Shown one piece after another: positions 4,975-64,000 of a stretch of DNA of 64,000 nt. The position numbers and the translations under genes are program-made. Position 1 is the first letter of the stretch. Every line of letters begins with the position of its first letter. The DNA comes from Escherichia coli (GTDB lineage: Bacteria > Pseudomonadota > Gammaproteobacteria > Enterobacterales > Enterobacteriaceae), in the NCBI RefSeq assembly GCF_003018255.1, contig NZ_CP027440.1; one strand, 5' to 3'. The notes beneath the pieces are model-generated. The model did not search any database. It was not told where the DNA came from and saw only the letters and a program-made list of their open reading frames with translations.

Positions 4975-5605
4975 AGGTGAGGCTGTGTTTGTTGTGTTCG
5001 TTGCCGTTTTTTGCCTGATGCGACGCTAACGCGTCTTATCAGACCTACAAGTCCCGAGCACAGAACCGTAGGCCGGATAAGGCGTTCACGCCGCATCCGG
5101 CATTCAGTGCCTGATGCGACGCTGACGCGTCTTATCAGGCCTACAAGATCCGAGCACAGAACCGTAGGACGGATAAGGCGTTCACGCCGCATCCGGCATT
5201 CAGTGCCTGATGCGACGCTGACGCGTCTTATCAGGCCTACAAGATCCGAGCACAGAACCGTAGGACGGATAAGGCGTTCACGCCGCATCCGGCATTCAGT
5301 GCCTGATGCGACGCTGACGCGTCTTATCAGGCCTACAAGACCCGAGCACAGAGCCGTAGGACGGATAAGGCGTTTTACGCCGCATCCGGCATTCAGTGCC
5401 TGATGCGACGCTGACGCGTCTTATCAGGCCTACAAGATCCGAGCACAGAACCGTAGGCCGGATAAGGCGTTCACGCCGCATCCGGCATTCAGTGCCTGAT
5501 GCGACGCTGGCGCGTCTTATCAGGCCTACAAGATCCAAGCCCAGCCCCCCAGGACGGATAAGGCGTTTTACGCCGCATCCGGCAACCGTTGCCGGAACCG
5601 AAAAC
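4975..5605. repeat. REP/BIME array, about six tandem ~98-bp units of paired inverted REP elements
   Basis: Motif gcctgatgcgacgctgacgcgtcttatcaggcctacaag...ggataaggcgttcacgccgcatccggc recurs at ~5004, 5110, 5208, 5300, 5398, 5494. Confidence 0.9.
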
Positions 5606-9911: not shown

Positions 9912-9999
9912 ATCGTTACCCTTTTTCAGGCAATAGTTGGCCCTGACCGAAGCGGCCAATTTTGTTTTTGTCGTTATTTACATCGCGGTTTCGCATTCA

Positions 10000-24527: not shown

Positions 24528-24539
24528 CACGCTACCGCC
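24528..24539 (-). promoter_or_regulatory. ops element (GGCGGTAGCGTG) within the JUMPstart sequence of the cps leader; RfaH-dependent antitermination site
   Basis: Plus strand reads cacgctaccgcc, the reverse complement of the ops consensus, about 180 nt upstream of wza start in the long leader. Confidence 0.8.
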
Positions 24540-24787
24540 CCTGGCTTTTTAGCTACCAATACACTGATTTAGCTTAATTTTTAAAACCCTCTCAACATAC
24601 AGTCGTTGATGAGAAAGGGTTATTGCGGAAATTAACTTCCGAATATAAGGTGACATTATGGTAATTGAATATTGGCTCTCCAATAATGCAGGAGGAAGTG
24701 TTACAGCTAACGGAATAGCAGGCAAGGTAACAATTCGGCAATTGGCTATTTTTAAGAATTATATTAAGTGTCATTCAATATGGTTTT

Positions 24788-30843: not shown

Positions 30844-33800
30844 ATGAGCAAACAATCACAGCATGTATTAATTGCCCTGCCCCACCCGCTGCTTCACCTG
30901 GTCAGTTTAGGTTTAGTCTCGTTTATCTTTACCCTTTTCTCGCTTGAGCTTTCGCAGTTTGGCACCCAACTCGCCCCACTGTGGTTCCCGACGTCCATCA
31001 TGATGGTGGCGTTTTATCGCCATGCCGGGCGCATGTGGCCGGGGATTGCGCTGAGCTGCTCGCTGGGAAATATCGCCGCATCCATCCTGCTTTTTTCCAC
31101 CAGCTCGCTGAACATGACCTGGACGACCATCAATATTGTTGAAGCCGTGGTCGGGGCAGTGCTACTGCGTAAATTGCTGCCGTGGTATAACCCATTGCAA
31201 AATCTGGCTGACTGGCTGCGTCTGGCACTCGGCAGCGCCATTGTTCCACCTCTGTTAGGGGGTGTTCTGGTTATCCTGCTGACGCCCGGAGACGATCCTC
31301 TCAGGGCATTTTTGATATGGGTACTGTCAGAATCCATCGGCGCACTGGCACTGGTGCCGCTGGGATTGTTATTTAAACCACACTATCTGCTGCGCCATCG
31401 CAACCCACGGTTGCTTTTTGAGTCGCTGCTCACGTTAGCCATCACACTGACGTTAAGCTGGCTTTCGATGCTGTATCTGCCGTGGCCTTTTACTTTCATT
31501 ATTGTGCTGTTGATGTGGAGCGCCGTGCGCCTGCCACGAATGGAAGCCTTTTTGATCTTCCTTACCACGGTGATGATGGTGTCACTGATGATGGCCGCGG
31601 ATCCCTCCCTGCTTGCTACGCCGCGTACATACCTGATGAGCCATATGCCGTGGCTACCGTTTTTGCTGATCCTGCTGCCCGCCAACATCATGACCATGGT
31701 GATGTATGCCTTTCGTGCGGAACGCAAACACATTTCCGAAAGCGAAACCCGCTTTCGGAACGCGATGGAATATTCCGCCATCGGCATGGCATTAGTGGGC
31801 ACCGAGGGACAATGGCTGCAATCCAACAAAGCGCTCTGCCAGTTTCTCGGTTACAGTCAGGAAGAGCTGCGCGGACTCACCTTTCAGCAACTGACCTGGC
31901 CGGAGGATCTCAATAAAGATCTGCAACAGGTTGAAAAGCTGATCAGCGGTGAAATAAACACCTATTCAATGGAAAAACGCTACTACAACCGCAATGGCGA
32001 TGTTGTCTGGGCGTTGCTTGCCGTCTCACTGGTGCGCCACACCGATGGTACGCCGCTCTATTTTATCGCTCAGATTGAAGACATTAACGAGCTAAAACGC
32101 ACCGAACAGGTGAACCAGCAACTGATGGAGCGCATCACGCTGGCTAACGAAGCGGGCGGGATTGGCATCTGGGAGTGGGAGCTAAAGCCGAATATTTTTA
32201 GCTGGGATAAGCGGATGTTCGAGCTGTATGAAATTCCTCCGCATATCAAACCGAACTGGCAGGTGTGGTACGAGTGCGTACTGCCGGAAGATCGCCAGCA
32301 TGCCGAAAAAGTGATTCGTGATTCGTTGCAATCACGCTCGCCCTTTAAGCTGGAATTTCGCATTGCCGTGAAAGATGGCATCCGCCATATCCGCGCCCTC
32401 GCCAACCGGGTACTGAATAAAGAAGGCGAAGTCGAACGCCTGCTCGGCATTAATATGGATATGACCGAAGTGAAACAGCTTAACGAGGCATTGTTTCAGG
32501 AAAAAGAGCGCCTGCACATTACGCTGGATTCCATCGGCGAAGCCGTGGTCTGTATTGATATGGCAATGAAAATTACCTTTATGAATCCGGTGGCGGAGAA
32601 GATGAGCGGCTGGACGCAGGAAGAAGCGTTAGGTGTTCCGCTCCTGACGGTGTTGCATATTACTTTTGGCGACAACGGACCATTAATGGAGAACATTTAC
32701 AGTGCCGACACCTCACGTTCCGCGATTGAACAAGATGTGGTGTTGCACTGTCGGAGCGGCGGCAGCTACGACGTGCATTACAGTATTACGCCGTTAAGTA
32801 CTCTGGACGGCAGCAATATAGGCTCGGTTCTGGTGATTCAGGACGTCACCGAATCGCGTAAAATGCTGCGCCAGCTGAGCTACAGCGCCTCCCATGATGC
32901 ACTGACGCATCTCGCCAATCGCGCCAGTTTTGAGAAGCAACTACGCATCCTGCTGCAAACGGTAAACAGTACACATCAGCGACATGCACTGGTGTTTATC
33001 GATCTTGATCGCTTTAAAGCGGTGAATGACAGCGCCGGGCACGCCGCTGGCGACGCTTTACTGCGCGAACTGGCGTCATTGATGCTGAGTATGCTGCGCT
33101 CCAGCGACGTGCTGGCGCGACTCGGTGGCGATGAATTTGGTCTGCTGCTGCCAGATTGTAATGTCGAAAGTGCGCGTTTTATCGCTACACGCATTATCAG
33201 CGCCGTGAATGACTATCACTTTATCTGGGAAGGACGTGTACATCGGGTAGGTGCCAGTGCCGGGATTACCTTGATTGATGACAACAATCATCAGGCGGCT
33301 GAAGTGATGTCGCAGGCTGATATCGCCTGTTATGCCTCCAAAAATGGTGGACGGGGCCGGGTGACGGTTTACGAACCGCAGCAAGCTGCCGCACATAGCG
33401 AACGGGCGGTGATGTCGCTTGATGAACAGTGGCGGATGATTAAAGAGAATCAGTTGATGATGATCGCCCACGGTGTCGCTTCGCCGCGGATCCCGGAAGC
33501 GCGTAATTTGTGGCTGATTTCACTTAAGCTCTGGAGTTGCGAAGGCGAGATTATTGATGAACAAACATTTCGTCGTAGCTTCAGCGATCCGGCACTTAGC
33601 CATGCTCTTGACCGACGGGTATTCCACGATTTTTTCCAGCAGGCCGCAAAAGCGATTGCCAGTAAAGGCTTAAGCATCGCCCTCCCCCTTTCCGTTGCCG
33701 GTTTGAGTAGCGCCACGCTGGTGAATGAACTGCTTGAGCAGCTGGAAAATAGCCCTCTACCCCCACGGTTATTACATCTGATTATTCCGGCAGACGCGAT

Positions 33801-34161
33801 TTTAGATCACGCAGAAAGCGTGCAAAAACTGCGGCTGGCGGGATGTCGGATCGTATTCAGTCAGGTGGGCCGCGATCTGCAAATCTTCAACTCGCTGAAA
33901 GCGAATATGGCAGATTACCTGCTACTTGATGGTGAGTTATGCGCCAATGTGCAGGGAAATTTGATGGATGAGATGCTGATTACGATCATTCAGGGGCACG
34001 CTCAGCGGCTCGGGATGAAGACCATCGCCGGGCCAGTAGTTTTACCCCTGGTGATGGATACGCTTTCTGGCATCGGCGTCGATCTGATTTATGGCGATGT
34101 GATTGCCGATGCCCAACCGCTGGATTTGCTGGTGAATAGCAGTTATTTCGCGATTAACTGA
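30844..34161 (+). CDS. dgcE: membrane-anchored PAS-GGDEF-EAL protein (diguanylate cyclase DgcE/YegE)
   Basis: 1105 aa ORF; N-terminal multi-TM region, PAS repeats, GGDEF motif (RLGGDEFGLLL) and a degenerate EAL-like C-terminus. Confidence 0.88.
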   Translation: MSKQSQHVLIALPHPLLHLVSLGLVSFIFTLFSLELSQFGTQLAPLWFPTSIMMVAFYRHAGRMWPGIALSCSLGNIAASILLFSTSSLNMTWTTINIVEAVVGAVLLRKLLPWYNPLQNLADWLRLALGSAIVPPLLGGVLVILLTPGDDPLRAFLIWVLSESIGALALVPLGLLFKPHYLLRHRNPRLLFESLLTLAITLTLSWLSMLYLPWPFTFIIVLLMWSAVRLPRMEAFLIFLTTVMMVSLMMAADPSLLATPRTYLMSHMPWLPFLLILLPANIMTMVMYAFRAERKHISESETRFRNAMEYSAIGMALVGTEGQWLQSNKALCQFLGYSQEELRGLTFQQLTWPEDLNKDLQQVEKLISGEINTYSMEKRYYNRNGDVVWALLAVSLVRHTDGTPLYFIAQIEDINELKRTEQVNQQLMERITLANEAGGIGIWEWELKPNIFSWDKRMFELYEIPPHIKPNWQVWYECVLPEDRQHAEKVIRDSLQSRSPFKLEFRIAVKDGIRHIRALANRVLNKEGEVERLLGINMDMTEVKQLNEALFQEKERLHITLDSIGEAVVCIDMAMKITFMNPVAEKMSGWTQEEALGVPLLTVLHITFGDNGPLMENIYSADTSRSAIEQDVVLHCRSGGSYDVHYSITPLSTLDGSNIGSVLVIQDVTESRKMLRQLSYSASHDALTHLANRASFEKQLRILLQTVNSTHQRHALVFIDLDRFKAVNDSAGHAAGDALLRELASLMLSMLRSSDVLARLGGDEFGLLLPDCNVESARFIATRIISAVNDYHFIWEGRVHRVGASAGITLIDDNNHQAAEVMSQADIACYASKNGGRGRVTVYEPQQAAAHSERAVMSLDEQWRMIKENQLMMIAHGVASPRIPEARNLWLISLKLWSCEGEIIDEQTFRRSFSDPALSHALDRRVFHDFFQQAAKAIASKGLSIALPLSVAGLSSATLVNELLEQLENSPLPPRLLHLIIPADAILDHAESVQKLRLAGCRIVFSQVGRDLQIFNSLKANMADYLLLDGELCANVQGNLMDEMLITIIQGHAQRLGMKTIAGPVVLPLVMDTLSGIGVDLIYGDVIADAQPLDLLVNSSYFAIN

Positions 34162-39971: not shown

Positions 39972-40152
39972 AAGAAATCCTTTCTTAGAGAATTATTGAG
40001 GCCCGGTATCATACCGACTGCAACAATGAAATAAGAGCAAACGAAGAAACTTTCAGAATTAGGCCCGGCGGCGCAGAAAATTTTGCTATTCGCCTCGCAA
40101 GAACGGAGAGCCGTCGATTGACACTAAGGGCGGAGTGACATAATTTCAGGAG

Positions 40153-40298
40153 TGAGGGTTAGGGAGAGGTTTCCCCCTCCCCCTGGTGTTCTTAGTAAGC
40201 CTGGAAGCTAATCACTAAGAGTATCACCAGTATGATGACGTGCTTCATCATAACCCTTTCCTTATTAAAAGCCCTCTTCTCCGGGAGAGGGTTTCCCG
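40153..40298 (+). ncRNA. sib: Sib antitoxin sRNA, repeat unit 1 (antisense to ibs unit 1)
   Basis: -35 TTGACA (40118-40123), 17-bp spacer, -10 TAATTT (40141-40146); ends at hairpin ccctct...agaggg plus TTTCCCGTTT; ends approximate. Confidence 0.6.
40192..40251 (-). CDS. ibs: Ibs type I toxin peptide, unit 1 (MMKHVIILVILLVISFQAY)
   Basis: 19-codon hydrophobic ORF fully antisense to Sib unit 1; matches recalled Ibs family pattern MMK...LLVISFPAY. Confidence 0.7.
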   Translation of the reverse strand: MMKHVIILVILLVISFQAY

Positions 40299-40487
40299 TT
40301 TCAGCGTCCCGCTGAAATCGTCGGCTTACCTCCTTTCGCCCTGAATGCAGTCTATCGCTAACGCGTGAACAAAATAGTTTCCTCTGTGATTATTGCGTAA
40401 CGACTCGCAAAGAATATTTGCTGGCAGGATCGCAGACTACAAAGCCTGCGGATTGACAATCTTATCGTGAAGGCATAATTTCAGGAG

Positions 40488-40628
40488 TGAGGGTAGAGCG
40501 GGGTTTCCCCCGCCCTGGTAGTCTTAGTAAGCTGGCCAGCTAATAACTAAGAGCACCACGATGATGAGTAGCTTCATCATGACCCTTTCCTTATTTAAGG
40601 CCCCTTCCTCGGGAGGGGCTTTCCCGTT
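40488..40628 (+). ncRNA. sib: Sib antitoxin sRNA, repeat unit 2
   Basis: -35 TTGACA (40453-40458), 17-bp spacer, -10 TAATTT (40476-40481); terminator gccccttcctcgggaggggc plus T-tract. Confidence 0.6.
40524..40580 (-). CDS. ibs: Ibs type I toxin peptide, unit 2 (MMKLLIIVVLLVISWPAY)
   Basis: 18-codon hydrophobic ORF antisense to Sib unit 2. Confidence 0.7.
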   Translation of the reverse strand: MMKLLIIVVLLVISWPAY

Positions 40629-40815
40629 TCAGCGTCCCGCTGAAATCGGCGGCCTACCTCCTTTCGCCATGCAAGCAGTCTATCGCTAACTTGCAGATAA
40701 AATAGTTTCACATGTGATTATTGCGTAACGTCTCGCAAAGAATATTTGCTGGCAGGATCGCAGACTACAAAGCCTGCGGATTGACAATCTAATTGTGAAG
40801 GCATACTTTCAGGAG

Positions 40816-40956
40816 TGAGGGTAGAGCGGGGTTTCCCCCGCCCTGGTAGTCTTAGTAAGCCGGGAAGCTTATGACTAAGAGCACCACGATGATGATCCAC
40901 TTCATCATGACCCTTTCCTTATTTAAGGCCCCTTCCTCGGGAGGGGCTTTCCCGTT
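40816..40956 (+). ncRNA. sib: Sib antitoxin sRNA, repeat unit 3
   Basis: -35 TTGACA (40781-40786), weaker -10 TACTTT (40804-40809); same terminator hairpin as unit 2. Confidence 0.55.
40852..40908 (-). CDS. ibs: Ibs type I toxin peptide, unit 3 (MMKWIIIVVLLVISFPAY)
   Basis: 18-codon hydrophobic ORF antisense to Sib unit 3. Confidence 0.7.
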   Translation of the reverse strand: MMKWIIIVVLLVISFPAY

Positions 40957-41143
40957 TCAGCGTCCCGCTGAAATCATCGGCTTACCTCCTTTCGCCCTGA
41001 ATGCAGTCTATCGCTGACTTGCGGATAAAATAGTTTCACATGTGATTATTGCGTGACGTCTCGCAAAGAATATTTGCTGGCAGGATCGCAGACTGCAAAG
41101 CCTGCGGATTGACAATCGGACCGTGAAGGCATACTTTCAGGAG

Positions 41144-41287
41144 TGAGGGTAGAGCGGGGTTTCCCCCGCCCTGGTAGTCTTAGTAAGCTGGGTAGCTAAC
41201 GACTAAGAGCACCACGATGATGAGTATCTTCATCATGACCCTTTCCTTATTTAAGGCCCCTTCCTCGGGAGGGGCTTGCCCGTTTCA
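41144..41287 (+). ncRNA. sib: Sib antitoxin sRNA, repeat unit 4
   Basis: -35 TTGACA (41109-41114), -10 TACTTT (41132-41137); terminator hairpin followed by an interrupted T-tract (cttgcccgtttc). Confidence 0.5.
41180..41236 (-). CDS. ibs: Ibs type I toxin peptide, unit 4 (MMKILIIVVLLVVSYPAY)
   Basis: 18-codon hydrophobic ORF antisense to Sib unit 4. Confidence 0.7.
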   Translation of the reverse strand: MMKILIIVVLLVVSYPAY

Positions 41288-54583: not shown

Positions 54584-54613
54584 GCTGCATTTATTAAGGT
54601 TATCATCCGTTTC

Positions 54614-54700
54614 GCTGAAAAACATAACCCATAAAATGCTAGCTGTACCAGGAACCACCTCCTTAGCCTGTGTAATCTCCCTTACACGGGCTTATTTTTT
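54614..54700 (+). ncRNA. cyaR: CyaR (RyeE) Hfq-dependent sRNA
   Basis: 87-nt sequence gctgaaaaacataacccataaaatgctagctgtaccaggaaccacctccttagcctgtgtaatctcccttacacgggcttatttttt matches recalled CyaR, including terminator hairpin and U-tail. Confidence 0.88.
54674..54700. other. bacteriophage P2 attB core (locI), unoccupied
   Basis: Reverse complement is AAAAAATAAGCCCGTGTAAGGGAGATT, the 27-bp P2 att core as I recall it; overlaps the CyaR terminator. Confidence 0.55.
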
Positions 54701-54870
54701 ATACATAAACCATAGAGACGGATTGATCCCAGGTCACCGTCTTCCATTGACCACATCGATAGAATCTCCCTTCATAGCACGATGCCTTTCACGTAACGGC
54801 ATCGTGCTCGCACAGGTTCCGGCTAAGCACAACCAGAACGCGGATGTTTGACGCTTACCAAAAAATATTC

Positions 54871-55188
54871 TCACTCTCCACATTTGAATGTCAGACGAGC
54901 GACGCCATGTAATCCTGCACCTTCTGTCTTCAGGTCAACTATCTGCATTTTTTTGCCCTGAGTAACACAGAAATGAACTGCATCATTTTTTACTATATTT
55001 TCTGCACCAGATATTCTACCCCTGGCTAAAGAAGCTTCGGCTTCGGTGTAGTATTGGTTATCGAGTTTACGCTGAATATTACTTTTATATGCAAGACCAA
55101 ATTTACCGATACTTGTCTCATCATTATGTACAGCACACCCAGACATAAGAAAAACACTAATTAATGATATAGCAGCTATCTTTTTCAT
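54871..55188 (-). CDS. yegR: small lipoprotein YegR
   Basis: 105 aa from MKKIAAISLISVFLMSGC (lipobox); track ORF extends upstream to 55248. Confidence 0.75.
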   Translation of the reverse strand: MKKIAAISLISVFLMSGCAVHNDETSIGKFGLAYKSNIQRKLDNQYYTEAEASLARGRISGAENIVKNDAVHFCVTQGKKMQIVDLKTEGAGLHGVARLTFKCGE

Positions 55189-55602
55189 CTCACCTTCCCC
55201 CATTAAATACCAACGACACGCTCTGGTGTTTAAATATAATAATGGCATGATTATTATAATTGAATAGGATTATAATAAATGTTCTGTACAACATTTCCTA
55301 CATAAGTAGGAATTACATACACGGATGCCCTTCCAGGTAACCCCATGGGGGGGTTAATATATTTTTAATAGTATATTGAAGATGCCACTGTTTAGTTGAA
55401 TATTAGGTATATGTTCTTTTTTGAAATTTACCGGTGGCTACCGTTAATATTCGCTGTTCCCATTGCAAGCTCCTGGTGGTAACCACTGAATCCTCCATAC
55501 TTGAACTGACTTTTTATCCTCCGACTTTCATCCTGTTCTGACTCCACCTTTTCTTTTCTGCTCTACACTATCTACAGTCCAATCATAAAGGCACATACGA
55601 TC

Positions 55603-56502
55603 ATGGCAGAATTTCCCGCCAGCTTACTGATTCTTAATGGCAAAAGTACTGACAATCTACCCTTGCGCGAAGCAATTATGCTGTTGCGTGAGGAAGGAAT
55701 GACGATCCATGTGCGGGTCACCTGGGAGAAAGGCGATGCCGCACGATATGTAGAGGAGGCACGGAAGTTGGGCGTCGCAACGGTGATTGCCGGTGGTGGC
55801 GATGGCACCATTAATGAAGTTTCTACGGCGTTGATTCAGTGTGAGGGGGATGACATACCCGCGCTGGGAATTTTACCATTAGGAACCGCCAATGATTTTG
55901 CCACCAGTGTAGGGATTCCTGAGGCACTGGATAAGGCGCTGAAACTGGCAATTGCCGGTAACGCCATTGCGATAGATATGGCGCAGGTCAATAAACAAAC
56001 CTGTTTTATTAATATGGCGACAGGCGGATTTGGGACGCGTATTACCACAGAAACGCCGGAAAAATTAAAAGCCGCGCTGGGTGGCGTCTCTTACATCATT
56101 CATGGCTTAATGCGCATGGATACTCTGCAACCGGACCGTTGTGAGATCCGCGGTGAAAACTTTCACTGGCAAGGTGACGCCCTGGTCATTGGTATTGGTA
56201 ACGGGCGTCAGGCCGGTGGCGGTCAGCAATTGTGCCCGAACGCGTTAATTAACGATGGCTTGCTGCAACTGCGCATTTTTACCGGCGATGAAATTCTTCC
56301 AGCTCTCGTATCAACCTTAAAATCTGACGAAGATAACCCGAATATTATCGAAGGCGCTTCGTCGTGGTTTGATATACAAGCCCCACACGAAATCACTTTT
56401 AATCTTGATGGCGAACCGTTGAGCGGACAAAACTTTCATATTGAAATACTTCCGGCGGCGTTGCGTTGTCGATTACCACCAGATTGTCCATTGTTGCGTT
56501 AA
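55603..56502 (+). CDS. yegS: lipid kinase YegS (DAGK-catalytic family)
   Basis: 299 aa ORF ([15 protein letters not shown]...GGDGT). Confidence 0.9.
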
Positions 56503-56540
56503 TCAAACTATTCTCTCTTGAACCAGGGAGAATCCGTAAT

Positions 56541-56570
56541 GCCGGATGCGGTGTAAACACCTTATCCGGC
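56541..56570. repeat. REP element between convergent yegS and gatR
   Basis: gccggatgcggtgtaaacaccttatccggc palindrome. Confidence 0.7.
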
Positions 56571-56583
56571 ATACAGAACAATA

Positions 56584-57363
56584 CTACACCGTAATTAATT
56601 TCACCCGTGTCTTCTGCAATGCCAGTTTATCCACCTCTGACACAGCATCGTCGGTAATAATAATGTCGATTTTTTCGATTGGCAGTACCTGATTAAAACC
56701 GCGACGATTAAATTTCGATGAATCGAGAACGGCAATCACTTTATTTGCGGCGGTGACCATCGCCCCGCTAATCGAATAACCTTCATTAAAGGTCGTAATA
56801 CCATTAACCGCATCAATACCATCAGCACCGACAAACATTAAATCGGCATTAATATCCTGCAATGAACGCTCGGCAATGGAACCATGCATCGAGCGTGTTT
56901 TATGGCGGACGGTCCCACCACAGACGACCAGAGTAATGTCTTTATTTTCGGAAAGGGCAAACGCCGCCGGGAGACTGTTGGTAATCACCGTGATATTTTT
57001 GGCGGTCATTAAACCTTCGGCGATAAGCATTGTGGTACTTCCGCTGTCGAGAATAACGGTCATCCCTTCGTGGATCATTTTGACTGCCGCCTGCGCTATT
57101 CTGTTTTTTGGCGCACTGGCGAGCTGAAATCGCTCTTTAAACCCAACTTCCTGGGTCTCGGTTTCGCTATTACCGGACATTATTTTCGCCGCACCGCCAT
57201 GAAAGCGCGTAACCACGCCTTTTTGTTCGAGAAAGCGCAAATCGGCACGGATTGTCGCTTCCGAGGCAGCAAATACTCCCGCCAGATCCTGAACAAGCAC
57301 GGTTCCCTGTTCATTCACTAATTGGATGATCTTATTCCTTCGCTCGAATGAATTCATCGTCAT
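56584..57363 (-). CDS. gatR: DeoR-family repressor of the galactitol operon, GatR (uninterrupted)
   Basis: 259 aa continuous ORF with N-terminal HTH and C-terminal DeoR sugar-binding domain; no insertion element inside. Confidence 0.85.
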   Translation of the reverse strand: MTMNSFERRNKIIQLVNEQGTVLVQDLAGVFAASEATIRADLRFLEQKGVVTRFHGGAAKIMSGNSETETQEVGFKERFQLASAPKNRIAQAAVKMIHEGMTVILDSGSTTMLIAEGLMTAKNITVITNSLPAAFALSENKDITLVVCGGTVRHKTRSMHGSIAERSLQDINADLMFVGADGIDAVNGITTFNEGYSISGAMVTAANKVIAVLDSSKFNRRGFNQVLPIEKIDIIITDDAVSEVDKLALQKTRVKLITV

Positions 57364-57462
57364 TTACCCATATTCAATTGTGGCTAGTGTAAACGAAGGG
57401 GGACCATTGGTGAATGATCTGTTTTGCACAATACCGGGCCAGCATCACGCTGGCCCGCGGTT

Positions 57463-58503
57463 TCAGGGAATGAGCAACACTTTGCCCGGCATAGCATTAC
57501 GAGCGATGTCACGCACCGCCTGGGCGAAGCTTTCAAAGCTTCCACGGTGAACGATTAATGGCTCCAGGCTTAACTTACGTTCTGTCAGCAACCGACTCGC
57601 CGTTTCCCACTCCTGCCCCGGCCAAGGGCTGGAGTAGTTCATCCAGCTGCCGATCACCGTCAGCTCTTTACGTAATATTTTGCCAAACGTTGTCGATGTT
57701 AAATGCAGATCCTGATGCAACGTGCCCACCAGCGCCAGCTGGGCATGAGGCCCGGCAATCTCTACCGCCAGTTCGACAGTTTGCGGGACGCCAGCCGTCT
57801 CGAGGATAAGCTGATTAAAGCGCAGCTCGCGTAAAACGCCCTGCATTTGCGGCGCGCTCATTTCAAGGCTGTTAAATGTTTGCATCGCACCGAAAGATTT
57901 TGCCAGTGCCAGTTTTTCTGAGCTAATGTCGATAGCCGTCACACTCTTTGCTCCCAGCGCGACAGCGCACTGAATAGCCAGCAGGCCAATGGTTCCGGCA
58001 CCAATAATAATAACGTTTTTATTCTCACAACCTTGCGCTAAATGAAAAGCATGCAGGCCAACGGTAATCGGCTCAATAAAAGCCCCATCCTCAATAGGCA
58101 TATCCGTGGGTAGAGCAAAGACATTTTTTCGCTTAACGACAATATATTCAGCAAGTCCACCATCACGCCGCGAGCCAATAAAATCATATTTTGCGCACTG
58201 GGAATAAAACCCTTTCAAACACTCTGGACAAGTAAAACAGGGTAATAACGGCACACAGGCAACCACATCGCCAGGGTGTAAATCATCAACACCGGATCCC
58301 ACCGCATCAATATAGCCGCTAAATTCATGACCTAACGTTATTGGATAATAATGTGCACCATTTTTAAATATCCTGGGTAAATCGGAACCACATAAGCCCG
58401 AGCTGGCAATTTTTACCCGCACCTCATCCTGATGTTTAATTTCAGGAATGACGCTTTCTGCTACGCGCACGATACCATCAGTATCATTCACCACTGATTT
58501 CAT
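57463..58503 (-). CDS. gatD: galactitol-1-phosphate 5-dehydrogenase
   Basis: 346 aa zinc-dependent MDR dehydrogenase ORF. Confidence 0.92.
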   Translation of the reverse strand: MKSVVNDTDGIVRVAESVIPEIKHQDEVRVKIASSGLCGSDLPRIFKNGAHYYPITLGHEFSGYIDAVGSGVDDLHPGDVVACVPLLPCFTCPECLKGFYSQCAKYDFIGSRRDGGLAEYIVVKRKNVFALPTDMPIEDGAFIEPITVGLHAFHLAQGCENKNVIIIGAGTIGLLAIQCAVALGAKSVTAIDISSEKLALAKSFGAMQTFNSLEMSAPQMQGVLRELRFNQLILETAGVPQTVELAVEIAGPHAQLALVGTLHQDLHLTSTTFGKILRKELTVIGSWMNYSSPWPGQEWETASRLLTERKLSLEPLIVHRGSFESFAQAVRDIARNAMPGKVLLIP

Positions 58504-58550
58504 AAAAACTCCTGATTGTTAAGGGGGATAACATCCCCCTCAGGTAAAAA

Positions 58551-59906
58551 TTATTCTGCGAGAACGGCTTTCTCTTGTTTAATAAAACCACGCGCTCTAC
58601 GCCAGGTCATGAAAATACCGGTAAGATAAATTGTGCCGATAATAATGAAGCCGGGAATATTTTGCGGGGAGAAAACCTGAATCAGTAACCAGGTAATGGG
58701 AGAACCGCCCTGATCCATTGAAGCCACCATACCCCCGGCTTTTAACGCCCCAGCATTAGCCGCCAGTTGGGTGTGCAAACCAATAGTTTGCGTCGCGATC
58801 CACAGGGTGATGCTCATAATGATGACACCCGAGATTAAGGTGCGGAACAGATTTCCACGATGCACCGCGACCGCCATCGCTACAAAGAAACCGATGGTGG
58901 CAAGGTCGCCAAACGGCAGTACCTGATTACCCGGAACACAAACAGCAATTAAAATGGTGAGCGGGATAAAAATCAGGCTTGCCGATACCACCGCCGTATG
59001 CCCCAGCAGCAACGCCGGATCAAGGCCAATCAGGAACTCCTGACCGCCGAACTTCGCCTGTAAACGACTACGGGCCTGCTTAGCGATGGGCGTTAAACCA
59101 TCCATGATGGGTTTAATCACCCGTGGCATCAGCAGCATAACTGCCGCCGTTTTTACCGCCAGCTGCAATACACCTTTGACATCGTAACCCGCGAGGATGC
59201 CGATAATCAGCCCCATCACAAAGCCCACGGTGACAGGTTCGCCAAATGGGCCAAATTTGCGCTGAATATCGTCGGCGCTAAATTTAATACGGTTAACGCC
59301 TGGGATTTTCTCGATGATAGCATCCACCAGCACCGCAATTGGCCCCAGATACGCCGACGTACCGTGCGGAATAGCAATGCCTTCCAGCTCAAAGAAATTT
59401 CGGGTATCGCGGGCAAACCAGTCGCCGAGCTTATAAACAAACGCCGCGTGAATTACCACACCCGCCATCCCTATCATCCATGAACCGGTTGCCAGATGCA
59501 GCAATGCGCCGGTGAAGGTCATATGCCAGATATTCCAGATATCAACATTTACCACCCGCGTCATACGGGTCAGTAGCATCGCCACGTTAACCAGAATCGC
59601 AATCGGAATCGCCACCAGCGCAATTTGCGACGCCCAGGTCATTGGTGAAGAGCCCGGCCAACCGACATCGACCACATGCAGATTCAGGTCAAAATTTTCC
59701 GCCATCGCTTTCGCCGCCGGGCCAATGGAATCCAGCATTAAGCCAATCACAAGGCCAATACCAACAAAGCCAATCCCGATATGCAGACCTGCTTTAAAGC
59801 AATCGCCTGCCTTCATGCCTAATATTTTAGAAAAAATAATGATGACAATCGGCAGCATCACCGTAGGGCCGAGGTCGAGAATATAACGCATGACTTCTGA
59901 AAACAT
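58551..59906 (-). CDS. gatC: PTS galactitol-specific EIIC
   Basis: 451 aa polytopic membrane ORF. Confidence 0.92.
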   Translation of the reverse strand: MFSEVMRYILDLGPTVMLPIVIIIFSKILGMKAGDCFKAGLHIGIGFVGIGLVIGLMLDSIGPAAKAMAENFDLNLHVVDVGWPGSSPMTWASQIALVAIPIAILVNVAMLLTRMTRVVNVDIWNIWHMTFTGALLHLATGSWMIGMAGVVIHAAFVYKLGDWFARDTRNFFELEGIAIPHGTSAYLGPIAVLVDAIIEKIPGVNRIKFSADDIQRKFGPFGEPVTVGFVMGLIIGILAGYDVKGVLQLAVKTAAVMLLMPRVIKPIMDGLTPIAKQARSRLQAKFGGQEFLIGLDPALLLGHTAVVSASLIFIPLTILIAVCVPGNQVLPFGDLATIGFFVAMAVAVHRGNLFRTLISGVIIMSITLWIATQTIGLHTQLAANAGALKAGGMVASMDQGGSPITWLLIQVFSPQNIPGFIIIGTIYLTGIFMTWRRARGFIKQEKAVLAE

Positions 59907-59909
59907 AGG

Positions 59910-60194
59910 TCACCCCTGTAAGATAGTCAGAATTTTATTTTGTAATGCTTCGATACCGACACCAGAAACAAAAGGCATGCCGTGAACTAACGGAATATCG
60001 CCAAAACTTCGATCCACCCTGGCAGTGGTGCATATCAAATGCACGCCATCCATATAGGTTTCTATTTCATTAACCCGACACTGGATTAATTCAACAGGAA
60101 TATTATGACTCTGACACAACTCTTTAATTTCTTCCGCCGCCATCGTAGAGGTCGCAACCGCGCCTCCGCAAGCGACAATAATCTTGCGTTTCAT
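59910..60194 (-). CDS. gatB: PTS galactitol-specific EIIB
   Basis: 94 aa ORF ([16 protein letters not shown]...). Confidence 0.92.
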
Positions 60195-60224
60195 AAATAG
60201 TCCTTTTTATTGTTACAGAGGGAT

Positions 60225-60677
60225 TTATTCGTCTGAATCTAAAACATACTTTGTGAAGTATTCCTTTAACTGGGTTTCAGGAAGAGTGATTAGTGTCTCG
60301 ACGATCTCGGGCTGTTGTAACTTGCCAAATAAACAGCGTAAAAGTTTCAATTGCTGCTGCGGATTTTCCACAATTAACGCAATAACCAACGATACCGCCA
60401 CGTCGTTATCATCATCCGCTTGCTGAAAATGAACTTTATTTGTTGGCCTTAACAGATAAATGGCTGACGACTTAGCATGAATCGCCTCACAATGCGGTAT
60501 TGCAATGGCGTGCTGCTCAAGCATTATCCCGGTAGGGAATTCTGCTTCTCTGGCAATTAATGCCTGTGGCCAGGTATCATGAACCACACCTTTCGCGAGC
60601 ATCTCATTACCGATATGGGTTAAAACTTCGCTACGATCGACAAAAGAAATTCCGCTACGAACAAACAGGTTAGTCAT
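60225..60677 (-). CDS. gatA: PTS galactitol-specific EIIA
   Basis: 150 aa ORF. Confidence 0.92.
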   Translation of the reverse strand: MTNLFVRSGISFVDRSEVLTHIGNEMLAKGVVHDTWPQALIAREAEFPTGIMLEQHAIAIPHCEAIHAKSSAIYLLRPTNKVHFQQADDDNDVAVSLVIALIVENPQQQLKLLRCLFGKLQQPEIVETLITLPETQLKEYFTKYVLDSDE

Positions 60678-60686
60678 ATACCGTCC

Positions 60687-62886
<2,200 letters not shown>

Positions 62887-62948
62887 TTAAATGTCGCGAT
62901 AACGATCACAAAAACGACAATATGAAAATCAATCCAGGAATGAAAGGC

Positions 62949-62978
62949 AAAAAAAACGGCCTCCCGGGGGAAGCCGTA
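62949..62978 (-). terminator. rho-independent terminator of fbaB
   Basis: Minus-strand hairpin acggcttcccccgggaggccgt followed by a run of T, about 85 nt downstream of the fbaB stop. Confidence 0.7.
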
Positions 62979-62999
62979 ACAAAGTACGCGTGGTTTTAT

Positions 63000-63035
63000 G
63001 CCGGATGTGGCGTTAACGCCTTTTCCGGCCTACGG
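63000..63035. repeat. REP element downstream of fbaB
   Basis: gccggatgtggcgttaacgccttttccggcctacgg palindromic REP-like motif. Confidence 0.65.
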
Positions 63036-63060
63036 GGTAGTGCTGTTCGTATGAAGCGCA

Positions 63061-64000
63061 TCAGGCGATAGTAATTTTGCTATCGAGATAAACGTCCTGC
63101 ACGGCGTTAATCAGTTTCACGCCGTCAGCCATCGATTTCTTGAACGCCTTACGTCCAAGAATCAGCCCCATTCCGCCTGCGCGTTTGTTGATAACCGCAG
63201 TACGCACTGCATCGCTGAGGTCAGTTTCACCGCCTGCAGCACCGCCGGAGTTTATCAACCCGGCCCGGCCCATATAGCAGTTAGCTAACTGATAACGCAC
63301 CAGGTCAATCGGGTTTTCACTGGTCAGTTTGCTGTAGACTCGATCGTCGGTATAACCGTAGTTAATCGCTTTATAACCGCCGTTATTTTCCGCCATTTTT
63401 TGTTTGACGATATCTGCACCTATGGTCGCCGCCAGATGGTTTGCCTGACCGGTCAGGTCGGCGAAAACATGGTAATCAACGCCATCTTTCTTAAAGGCGG
63501 AGTTACGCAAATAGGCCCACAGCACTGTCACCATGCCCAGCTCGTGCGCACGTTCAAAAGCCGCAGAAATTTCTTCAATCTGGCGACGTGACTCTTCCGA
63601 ACCAAAATAGATAGTCACACCAACCGCCACCGCGCCCATGTTGAAGGCCTGCTCCACGCTGGCATACAGCGTTTGATCGTAGGTATTCGGGTAACTTAGC
63701 GTCTCGTTGTGATTAAGTTTGACGAGGAATGGAATGCGATGCGCGTAACGCCGCGATACCGATGCCAGCACGCCGTAAGTTGACGCCACACAGTTACAGC
63801 CCGCTTCGATCGCCAGTTCAACAATGTTTTTCGGGTCAAAGTAGAGCGGGTTAGCGGCAAATGAAGCTCCGGCAGAGTGCTCAACGCCCTGGTCAACCGG
63901 CAGAATAGAAAGATATCCTGTGCCAGCCAGACGCCCAGTGTTGTACAACGTCTGCATATTACGTAACACCGCTGGCGGGCGATTATTGTCAATCATCACG
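63061..64000 (-). CDS. fbaB: class I fructose-bisphosphate aldolase FbaB; 5' end cut by window edge
   Basis: Minus-strand ORF ending ...YLDSKITIA, stop at 63061; reading frame continues past the window end. Confidence 0.88.

Follow-up and report, generated by a model that had tools for sequence, protein, structure and literature searches.

An intact gatR gene in Escherichia coli and the predicted repressibility of its galactitol operon

Introduction

The gat locus of Escherichia coli is under strong selection in the gut, and the state of its repressor gene, gatR, raises the question of whether a given strain expresses its galactitol operon on demand or constitutively. We asked this of a stretch of 64,000 nucleotides from contig NZ_CP027440.1, hereafter the window. 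The original prediction held that gatR is uninterrupted here and that gat expression should accordingly be repressible. The reference strain for this locus is K-12, whose gatR insertion and constitutive phenotype have been in print since 1996 (Nobelmann and Lengeler, as cited in PMC9997739).

Our analysis leads to the view that the open reading frame is, very probably, wild-type gatR in its ancestral uninterrupted state, so that the gat genes are expected to be inducible. In the following we consider the gene and its product, the site of the K-12 insertion, the functional evidence on the encoded protein and the control regions, together with two alternatives in which an open reading frame would not translate into normal regulation.

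Results and Discussion

The gatR gene and its product

The gatR coding sequence occupies positions 56584..57363 on the minus strand as an uninterrupted open reading frame, and its protein is that of K-12 GatR freed of the insertion element and of GatR from E. coli HS. In the list of open reading frames it extends over 259 codons, from the first ATG to a TAG at 56584-56586, with no internal stop codons. The continuous run of 259 codons originally described thus holds when counted from this first ATG, but the number depends on the start: the second ATG, at 57357, yields 257 codons and is the start used by RefSeq/PGAP and by the K-12 annotation. Both ATGs are kept in all strains compared, and proteins of either length are found in public databases, on at least 1000 contigs in each case; family profiles align to the protein from residue 3 onward.

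Pfam searches recognize two domains on this strand. The DeoR-type winged helix-turn-helix DNA-binding domain (PF08220, HTH_DeoR; 57184..57342, residues 8-60 of the 259-residue form) matches profile positions 1-53 of 57 with an E-value of 1.3e-16 and 60.5 bits (cut-off 21). The C-terminal sensor domain, which binds the effector (PF00455, DeoRC; 56650..57111, residues 85-238), matches positions 5-159 of 160 with an E-value of 2.5e-51 and 174.2 bits (cut-off 31.8). GatR therefore has both the N-terminal helix-turn-helix and the C-terminal DeoRC domain by which membership in the DeoR/GlpR family is recognized.

NCBIfam holds no GatR-specific model. Its top models for this protein are the equivalogs AgaR (NF040755, 232.9 bits) and SrlR (NF007753, 226.3 bits), and assignment to either was rejected, as the scores lie below the respective curated cut-offs of 260 and 350. 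Judged by these sub-threshold scores, GatR is a DeoR-family paralogue of AgaR and SrlR, outside both equivalog families.

The site of the K-12 insertion

In K-12 MG1655, gatR (b4498) is an annotated pseudogene in two pieces of 299 nt and 475 nt. These flank an IS3E element of 1258 bp (2170171-2171428), at which the 3-bp target GTC is duplicated. The original statement that a copy of IS3 splits gatR in this strain is borne out by this annotation, and that the insertion renders gat expression constitutive is stated both in PMC5850726 and in 10.64898/2026.01.05.697630.

In the window, the target GTC is present as a single, unbroken copy at 57059..57061. Where K-12 has AACGGTC on one side of IS3E and GTCATCC on the other, the window reads aacggtcatcc without interruption. 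The K-12-type genomes in the E. coli genome collection have their gatR match broken at query position 478, corresponding to 57061 in the window.

For a direct comparison, the K-12 pieces were joined with IS3E removed, giving 774 nt of gatR counted from the second ATG at 57357. This alignment, which had been proposed as a check on the original prediction, contains 21 substitutions and no indels, and all of the substitutions are synonymous. Gap-free alignments were obtained with K-12, HS and five other alleles, and none of them revealed a frameshift or a premature stop. With its continuous reading frame, its gap-free match to K-12 and an uninterrupted IS3E site, gatR is intact in the window and free of an IS insertion, as predicted, and is not a K-12-type gatR::IS3E null allele.

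Frequency of intact gatR in E. coli

Among 5426 complete E. coli genomes, 5109 have gatR and 317 lack it. BLAST finds a single colinear full-length match in about 4756 of the 5426 (88%), a share that gives an upper bound for functional copies, since colinearity is blind to knock-outs by point mutation and to short insertions. A further ~350 genomes have gatR split in two places; in those that were sampled, K-12 laboratory derivatives among them, the break lies where K-12 has it. An intact gatR is thus the norm in E. coli and K-12 is the exception, an atypical reference at the gat locus. The finding for the window is correct and was already known in kind: its meaning for this strain is that gat regulation is probably normal, and the intact gene as such holds no new biology.

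Function of the encoded protein

An open reading frame alone is no proof of function, and a cryptic loss of function in GatR would lead to constitutive gat expression of the K-12 type. This general caution is all that speaks for such a scenario; nothing specific to the window does. Against it, the protein has 100% amino-acid identity over 257 residues to GatR of E. coli HS (WP_001295426.1), an allele also carried by ACN001 and 2014C-3338, and HS gatR has been shown to work: put in place of the pseudogene of MG1655, whose constitutive gat expression the same study attributes to the IS insertion, it restored gat regulation (Sousa et al. 2017, PMC5850726). The window therefore encodes a protein identical to a GatR allele of demonstrated repressor function. 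It is also the commonest GatR sequence in the database (at least 1000 contigs), and none of the 21 differences from K-12 alters a residue. We consider a cryptic loss of function effectively refuted by this sequence identity and give it next to no probability. Intact gatR and its identity to the HS allele instead imply a working repressor, from which repressible gat expression is to be expected.

Two further lines of evidence bear on GatR in E. coli at large. Across seven diverse strains only two residues of the protein vary (I196V and E241D), while gatR of the window shows nucleotide differences of up to 3.7% from that of other E. coli genomes; so few residue changes despite this divergence indicate purifying selection on a working protein. 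In a 2026 preprint (10.64898/2026.01.05.697630), silencing of gatR strongly affected the fitness of two natural isolates, LF82 and CFT073, but not that of MG1655, where IS3E already breaks the gene. The effects in LF82 and CFT073 show that, outside K-12, wild strains have an active GatR repressor.

The gat operon and its ancestry

The genes around gatR are arranged in the canonical order of the E. coli gat locus, yegS (convergent), gatR, gatD, gatC, gatB, gatA, gatZ, gatY and fbaB, with gatR to fbaB on the same strand. gatR lies directly downstream of gatYZABCD, between gatD and yegS, as it does in K-12, HS and 2014C-3338. The structural genes (57463..62832, minus strand) are all intact, have the same lengths as in E. 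coli HS and contain no internal stops: gatD (57463-58503), gatC (58551-59906), gatB (59910-60194), gatA (60225-60677), gatZ (60687-61949) and gatY (61978-62832), each on the minus strand. gatC is an intact gene of 1356 nt, whereas the MG1655 copy is a frameshifted pseudogene of 1358 nt. Compared to K-12 and HS, gatZ is the most divergent of the gat genes, with 62-63 nucleotide and 15-16 amino-acid differences; GatD has 6-7 amino-acid differences and GatR has none.

The relatedness of the window to other genomes changes along its length. Positions 27000-51000 are 99.9% identical to JNE23-011 and JNE112863, two Japanese human isolates. From about 59700 to 63360 (gatB-gatY) the window is identical to JNE23-011, and from about 56030 to 59690 (the 3' end of yegS, gatR, gatD and gatC) it is 2-4% off that strain. 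Within this second segment, positions 56565-57064, the 3' two-thirds of gatR, are identical to 2014C-3338. Identity to JNE23-011 over gatB-gatY next to divergence over gatR-gatC points to the gat locus being a recombination mosaic, with a tract that covers the repressor end. On this pattern, the gatR allele was gained by recombination, or was replaced in this way in the closest relatives.

Control regions

The gatD-gatR intergenic region (57364..57462, minus strand) has a GC-rich hairpin after gatD, at about 57436-57456, and presumably holds the gatR promoter and leader. K-12 and HS have exactly the same sequence here as the window. Conservation of the ~70 bp before the gatR ATG extends to Pluralibacter and Citrobacter amalonaticus, and this segment looks like the footprint of a promoter or an operator.

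The second control region lies upstream of gatY (62833..62955, minus strand) and contains candidate operator repeats and a CRP-like site, both assigned from sequence only. An inverted repeat of ~20 bp surrounds the gatY promoter core, at about 62909-62927 and 62833-62858; its arms, TTTCATATTGTCGTTTTTG and the imperfect reverse complement CGAAAACAAACGACAGGATATGAAA, are unchanged relative to K-12 and HS. This repeat is the likeliest candidate for a GatR operator pair; we found no definition of the GatR operators of E. coli in the accessible literature. The arms flank the putative CRP site, TGTGATCGTTATCGCG, at 62895-62910. A simple scan with the sigma-70 consensus found no promoter-like site in either the gatR or the gatY control region.

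In the ~100 bp before gatY, the window has three substitutions relative to K-12 and HS. Two are common in other strains and the third, a T-to-G change on the gat strand at 62897, is rare; it falls into a half-site of the CRP-like sequence, TGTGATCGTTATC[T>G]CG. This change could alter the level of activation and would not obviously affect repression. The exact 151-bp promoter allele of gatY is found in three others of the 5426 complete genomes (DETEC-S792, JNE23-011 and JNE112863).

These differences, together with those along the locus, bear on the second alternative, in which gatR is intact and gat regulation is nevertheless altered, being partly constitutive or weakly or not at all inducible, owing to cis-acting differences at the gatY promoter or to alterations in other parts of the pathway. 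The rarity of the promoter allele, the substitution at 62897 with its two companions, the distinct ancestry of yegS-gatR-gatD-gatC and the residue differences in GatD and GatZ would all be compatible with it, as would the report that LF82 and CFT073 show no gat de-repression in the mouse gut (10.64898/2026.01.05.697630). However, both candidate operator arms and the entire region upstream of gatR are the same as in K-12 and HS, and of the promoter substitutions all but the one at 62897 are common in other strains. In addition, the identical promoter allele has been kept by three independent natural isolates, and the gat genes all have their full length. We therefore regard altered regulation as improbable, and strongly expect gat expression in this strain, on the sequence evidence, to be repressible and not constitutive.

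We infer where the operators lie, what the inducer is and how the genes are actually expressed; normal regulation would proceed as follows. The N-terminal helix-turn-helix of GatR would bind to operators that lie at the gatY promoter and probably also at that of gatR, and GatR bound there would keep gatYZABCD off. Galactitol would be imported and phosphorylated via the PTS, and the resulting sugar-phosphate effector would bind the DeoRC domain and release the repressor, with cAMP-CRP aiding the activation of gat transcription. The gat genes of this strain would thus be inducible, whereas those of K-12 MG1655 are constitutive, with IS3E splitting gatR.

Farther upstream of gatY, at 62978-63060, the window and 2014C-3338 are without a block of REP-type repeats of 78 bp that is present in K-12 and HS. 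The indel is located between the stop codon of fbaB and the fbaB terminator (hairpin at 62956-62977), upstream of the gatY promoter; we rejected it as a promoter change, as it reflects the copy number of a REP element beyond the promoter. Related elements are found at 56536-56571, where the yegS-gatR spacer has a partial REP/naRNA4-like match, and at 5071-5526, with five tandem naRNA4 (REP-type) repeats.

A low-diversity island at the 5' end of gatR

In a 7.5-kb alignment of seven diverse strains, the longest run without a variable site is 57176..57440, a stretch of 265 bp that comprises the gatR promoter and leader (83 bp upstream) and codons 1-61 (the first 182 coding nucleotides). No run of this length arose when the variable sites were placed at random 20,000 times. 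All of the 5104 E. coli records for this island are at least 99% identical to the window, about four in five of them exactly so. The adjoining 265 bp of gatR (56911-57175) reach this level of identity in only 104 of 5109 records, and almost every genome departs from the window by 1-5% in this part of the gene; a control of the same length from the middle of gatY (62386-62650) reaches it in 4291 of 5102. There are low-diversity patches elsewhere in the locus too, none of those tested being as complete as the island.

Comparison with other Escherichia (E. whittamii, Escherichia sp. E1V33 and the divergent 'E. coli E69') gave synonymous changes in 5-10% of the conserved codons within codons 1-61 and in 24-37% within the rest of gatR, so that synonymous divergence in the island is 3-5 times lower. 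Within-genus divergence of the island is likewise reduced in several Citrobacter pairs and in Serratia, and this reduction was not seen in Leclercia, Atlantibacter, Enterobacter and Silvania. Long-term synonymous constraint across genera is unsupported: within the coding sequence of the island, the divergence of the window from Pluralibacter and Citrobacter amalonaticus is 18-21%, against 22-23% elsewhere.

RNA structure is equally unsupported as the cause of the island, with folding z-scores of -0.86 for the sense and -0.08 for the antisense strand, compared to -1.08 for a neighbouring control, and Rfam searches yielded no match to a known RNA family within the island even at E <= 1. An antisense protein gene is unlikely to be the cause, as the plus-strand open reading frame in question (57070-57321) runs on into sequence where seven sites vary among the compared strains. 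A RIL-seq-based study lists both gatR and gatY among the targets of the predicted sRNA AceK-int (PMC8175672).

Our tentative proposal, to which we assign a rather low probability, is that the island has a second function at the nucleotide level or results from a short recombination-driven sweep through the species. A nucleotide-level constraint specific to Escherichia is possible, as is a short recombination-driven sweep or introgression; candidate functions could be a leader that is targeted by an sRNA or regulated by an antisense transcript, or an extended complex of protein and DNA at the gat regulatory switch. This near-invariant segment of gatR promoter and 5' coding sequence is the sole item of our analysis that might merit a small follow-up.

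Other features of the window

Several sites outside the gat locus differ from reference strains or have known RNA elements. The gap between yegL and mdtA (40118-41251) has four tandem matches to Sib antitoxin RNA (Rfam SIB_RNA, 137-150 bits); the annotation of E. coli HS lists just two genes for Ibs toxins there. At 54612-55250, yegR comes almost immediately after the sRNA gene cyaR (54612-54697), leaving a prophage site empty that in K-12 is occupied by a P2-like prophage remnant (ogrK, yegZ, 'cryptic prophage PR-X') and in an O157:H7 strain by P2-type prophage genes, with an integrase adjoining yegR. dgcE (yegE; 30844-34161) is intact in the window, with 1105 codons, and is a pseudogene with an internal stop in the HS record. 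An algC RNA motif is located at 9916-9965 and a JUMPstart element at 24528-24566.

Comparison with known systems

Among characterized regulators, AgaR and SrlR resemble GatR in their two-domain architecture, their length and their general logic, as repressors of an operon for a PTS sugar or sugar alcohol. They differ from it in operon context, AgaR belonging to the N-acetylgalactosamine PTS operon and SrlR to the glucitol PTS operon.

GatR of Salmonella Typhimurium is described as the repressor of the gat promoters there, and deletion of its helix-turn-helix abolishes repression (PMC7972205). The Salmonella gat cluster has another location and extra genes according to the same paper; by analogy, the published description supports the same mode of action for GatR of the window.

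The closest counterparts are found within E. coli. HS, ACN001 and 2014C-3338 share with the window the GatR protein, the flanking genes and the upstream region. gatR of HS differs from that of the window by 21 nucleotides, all of them synonymous, and the closest allele, that of 2014C-3338, is 99.6% identical at the nucleotide level, again with synonymous differences. MG1655 has the same gene in the same position and, once the fragments are joined, the same encoded protein, but it carries IS3E in gatR and a frameshift in gatC, whereas the window has no insertion element and an intact gatC.
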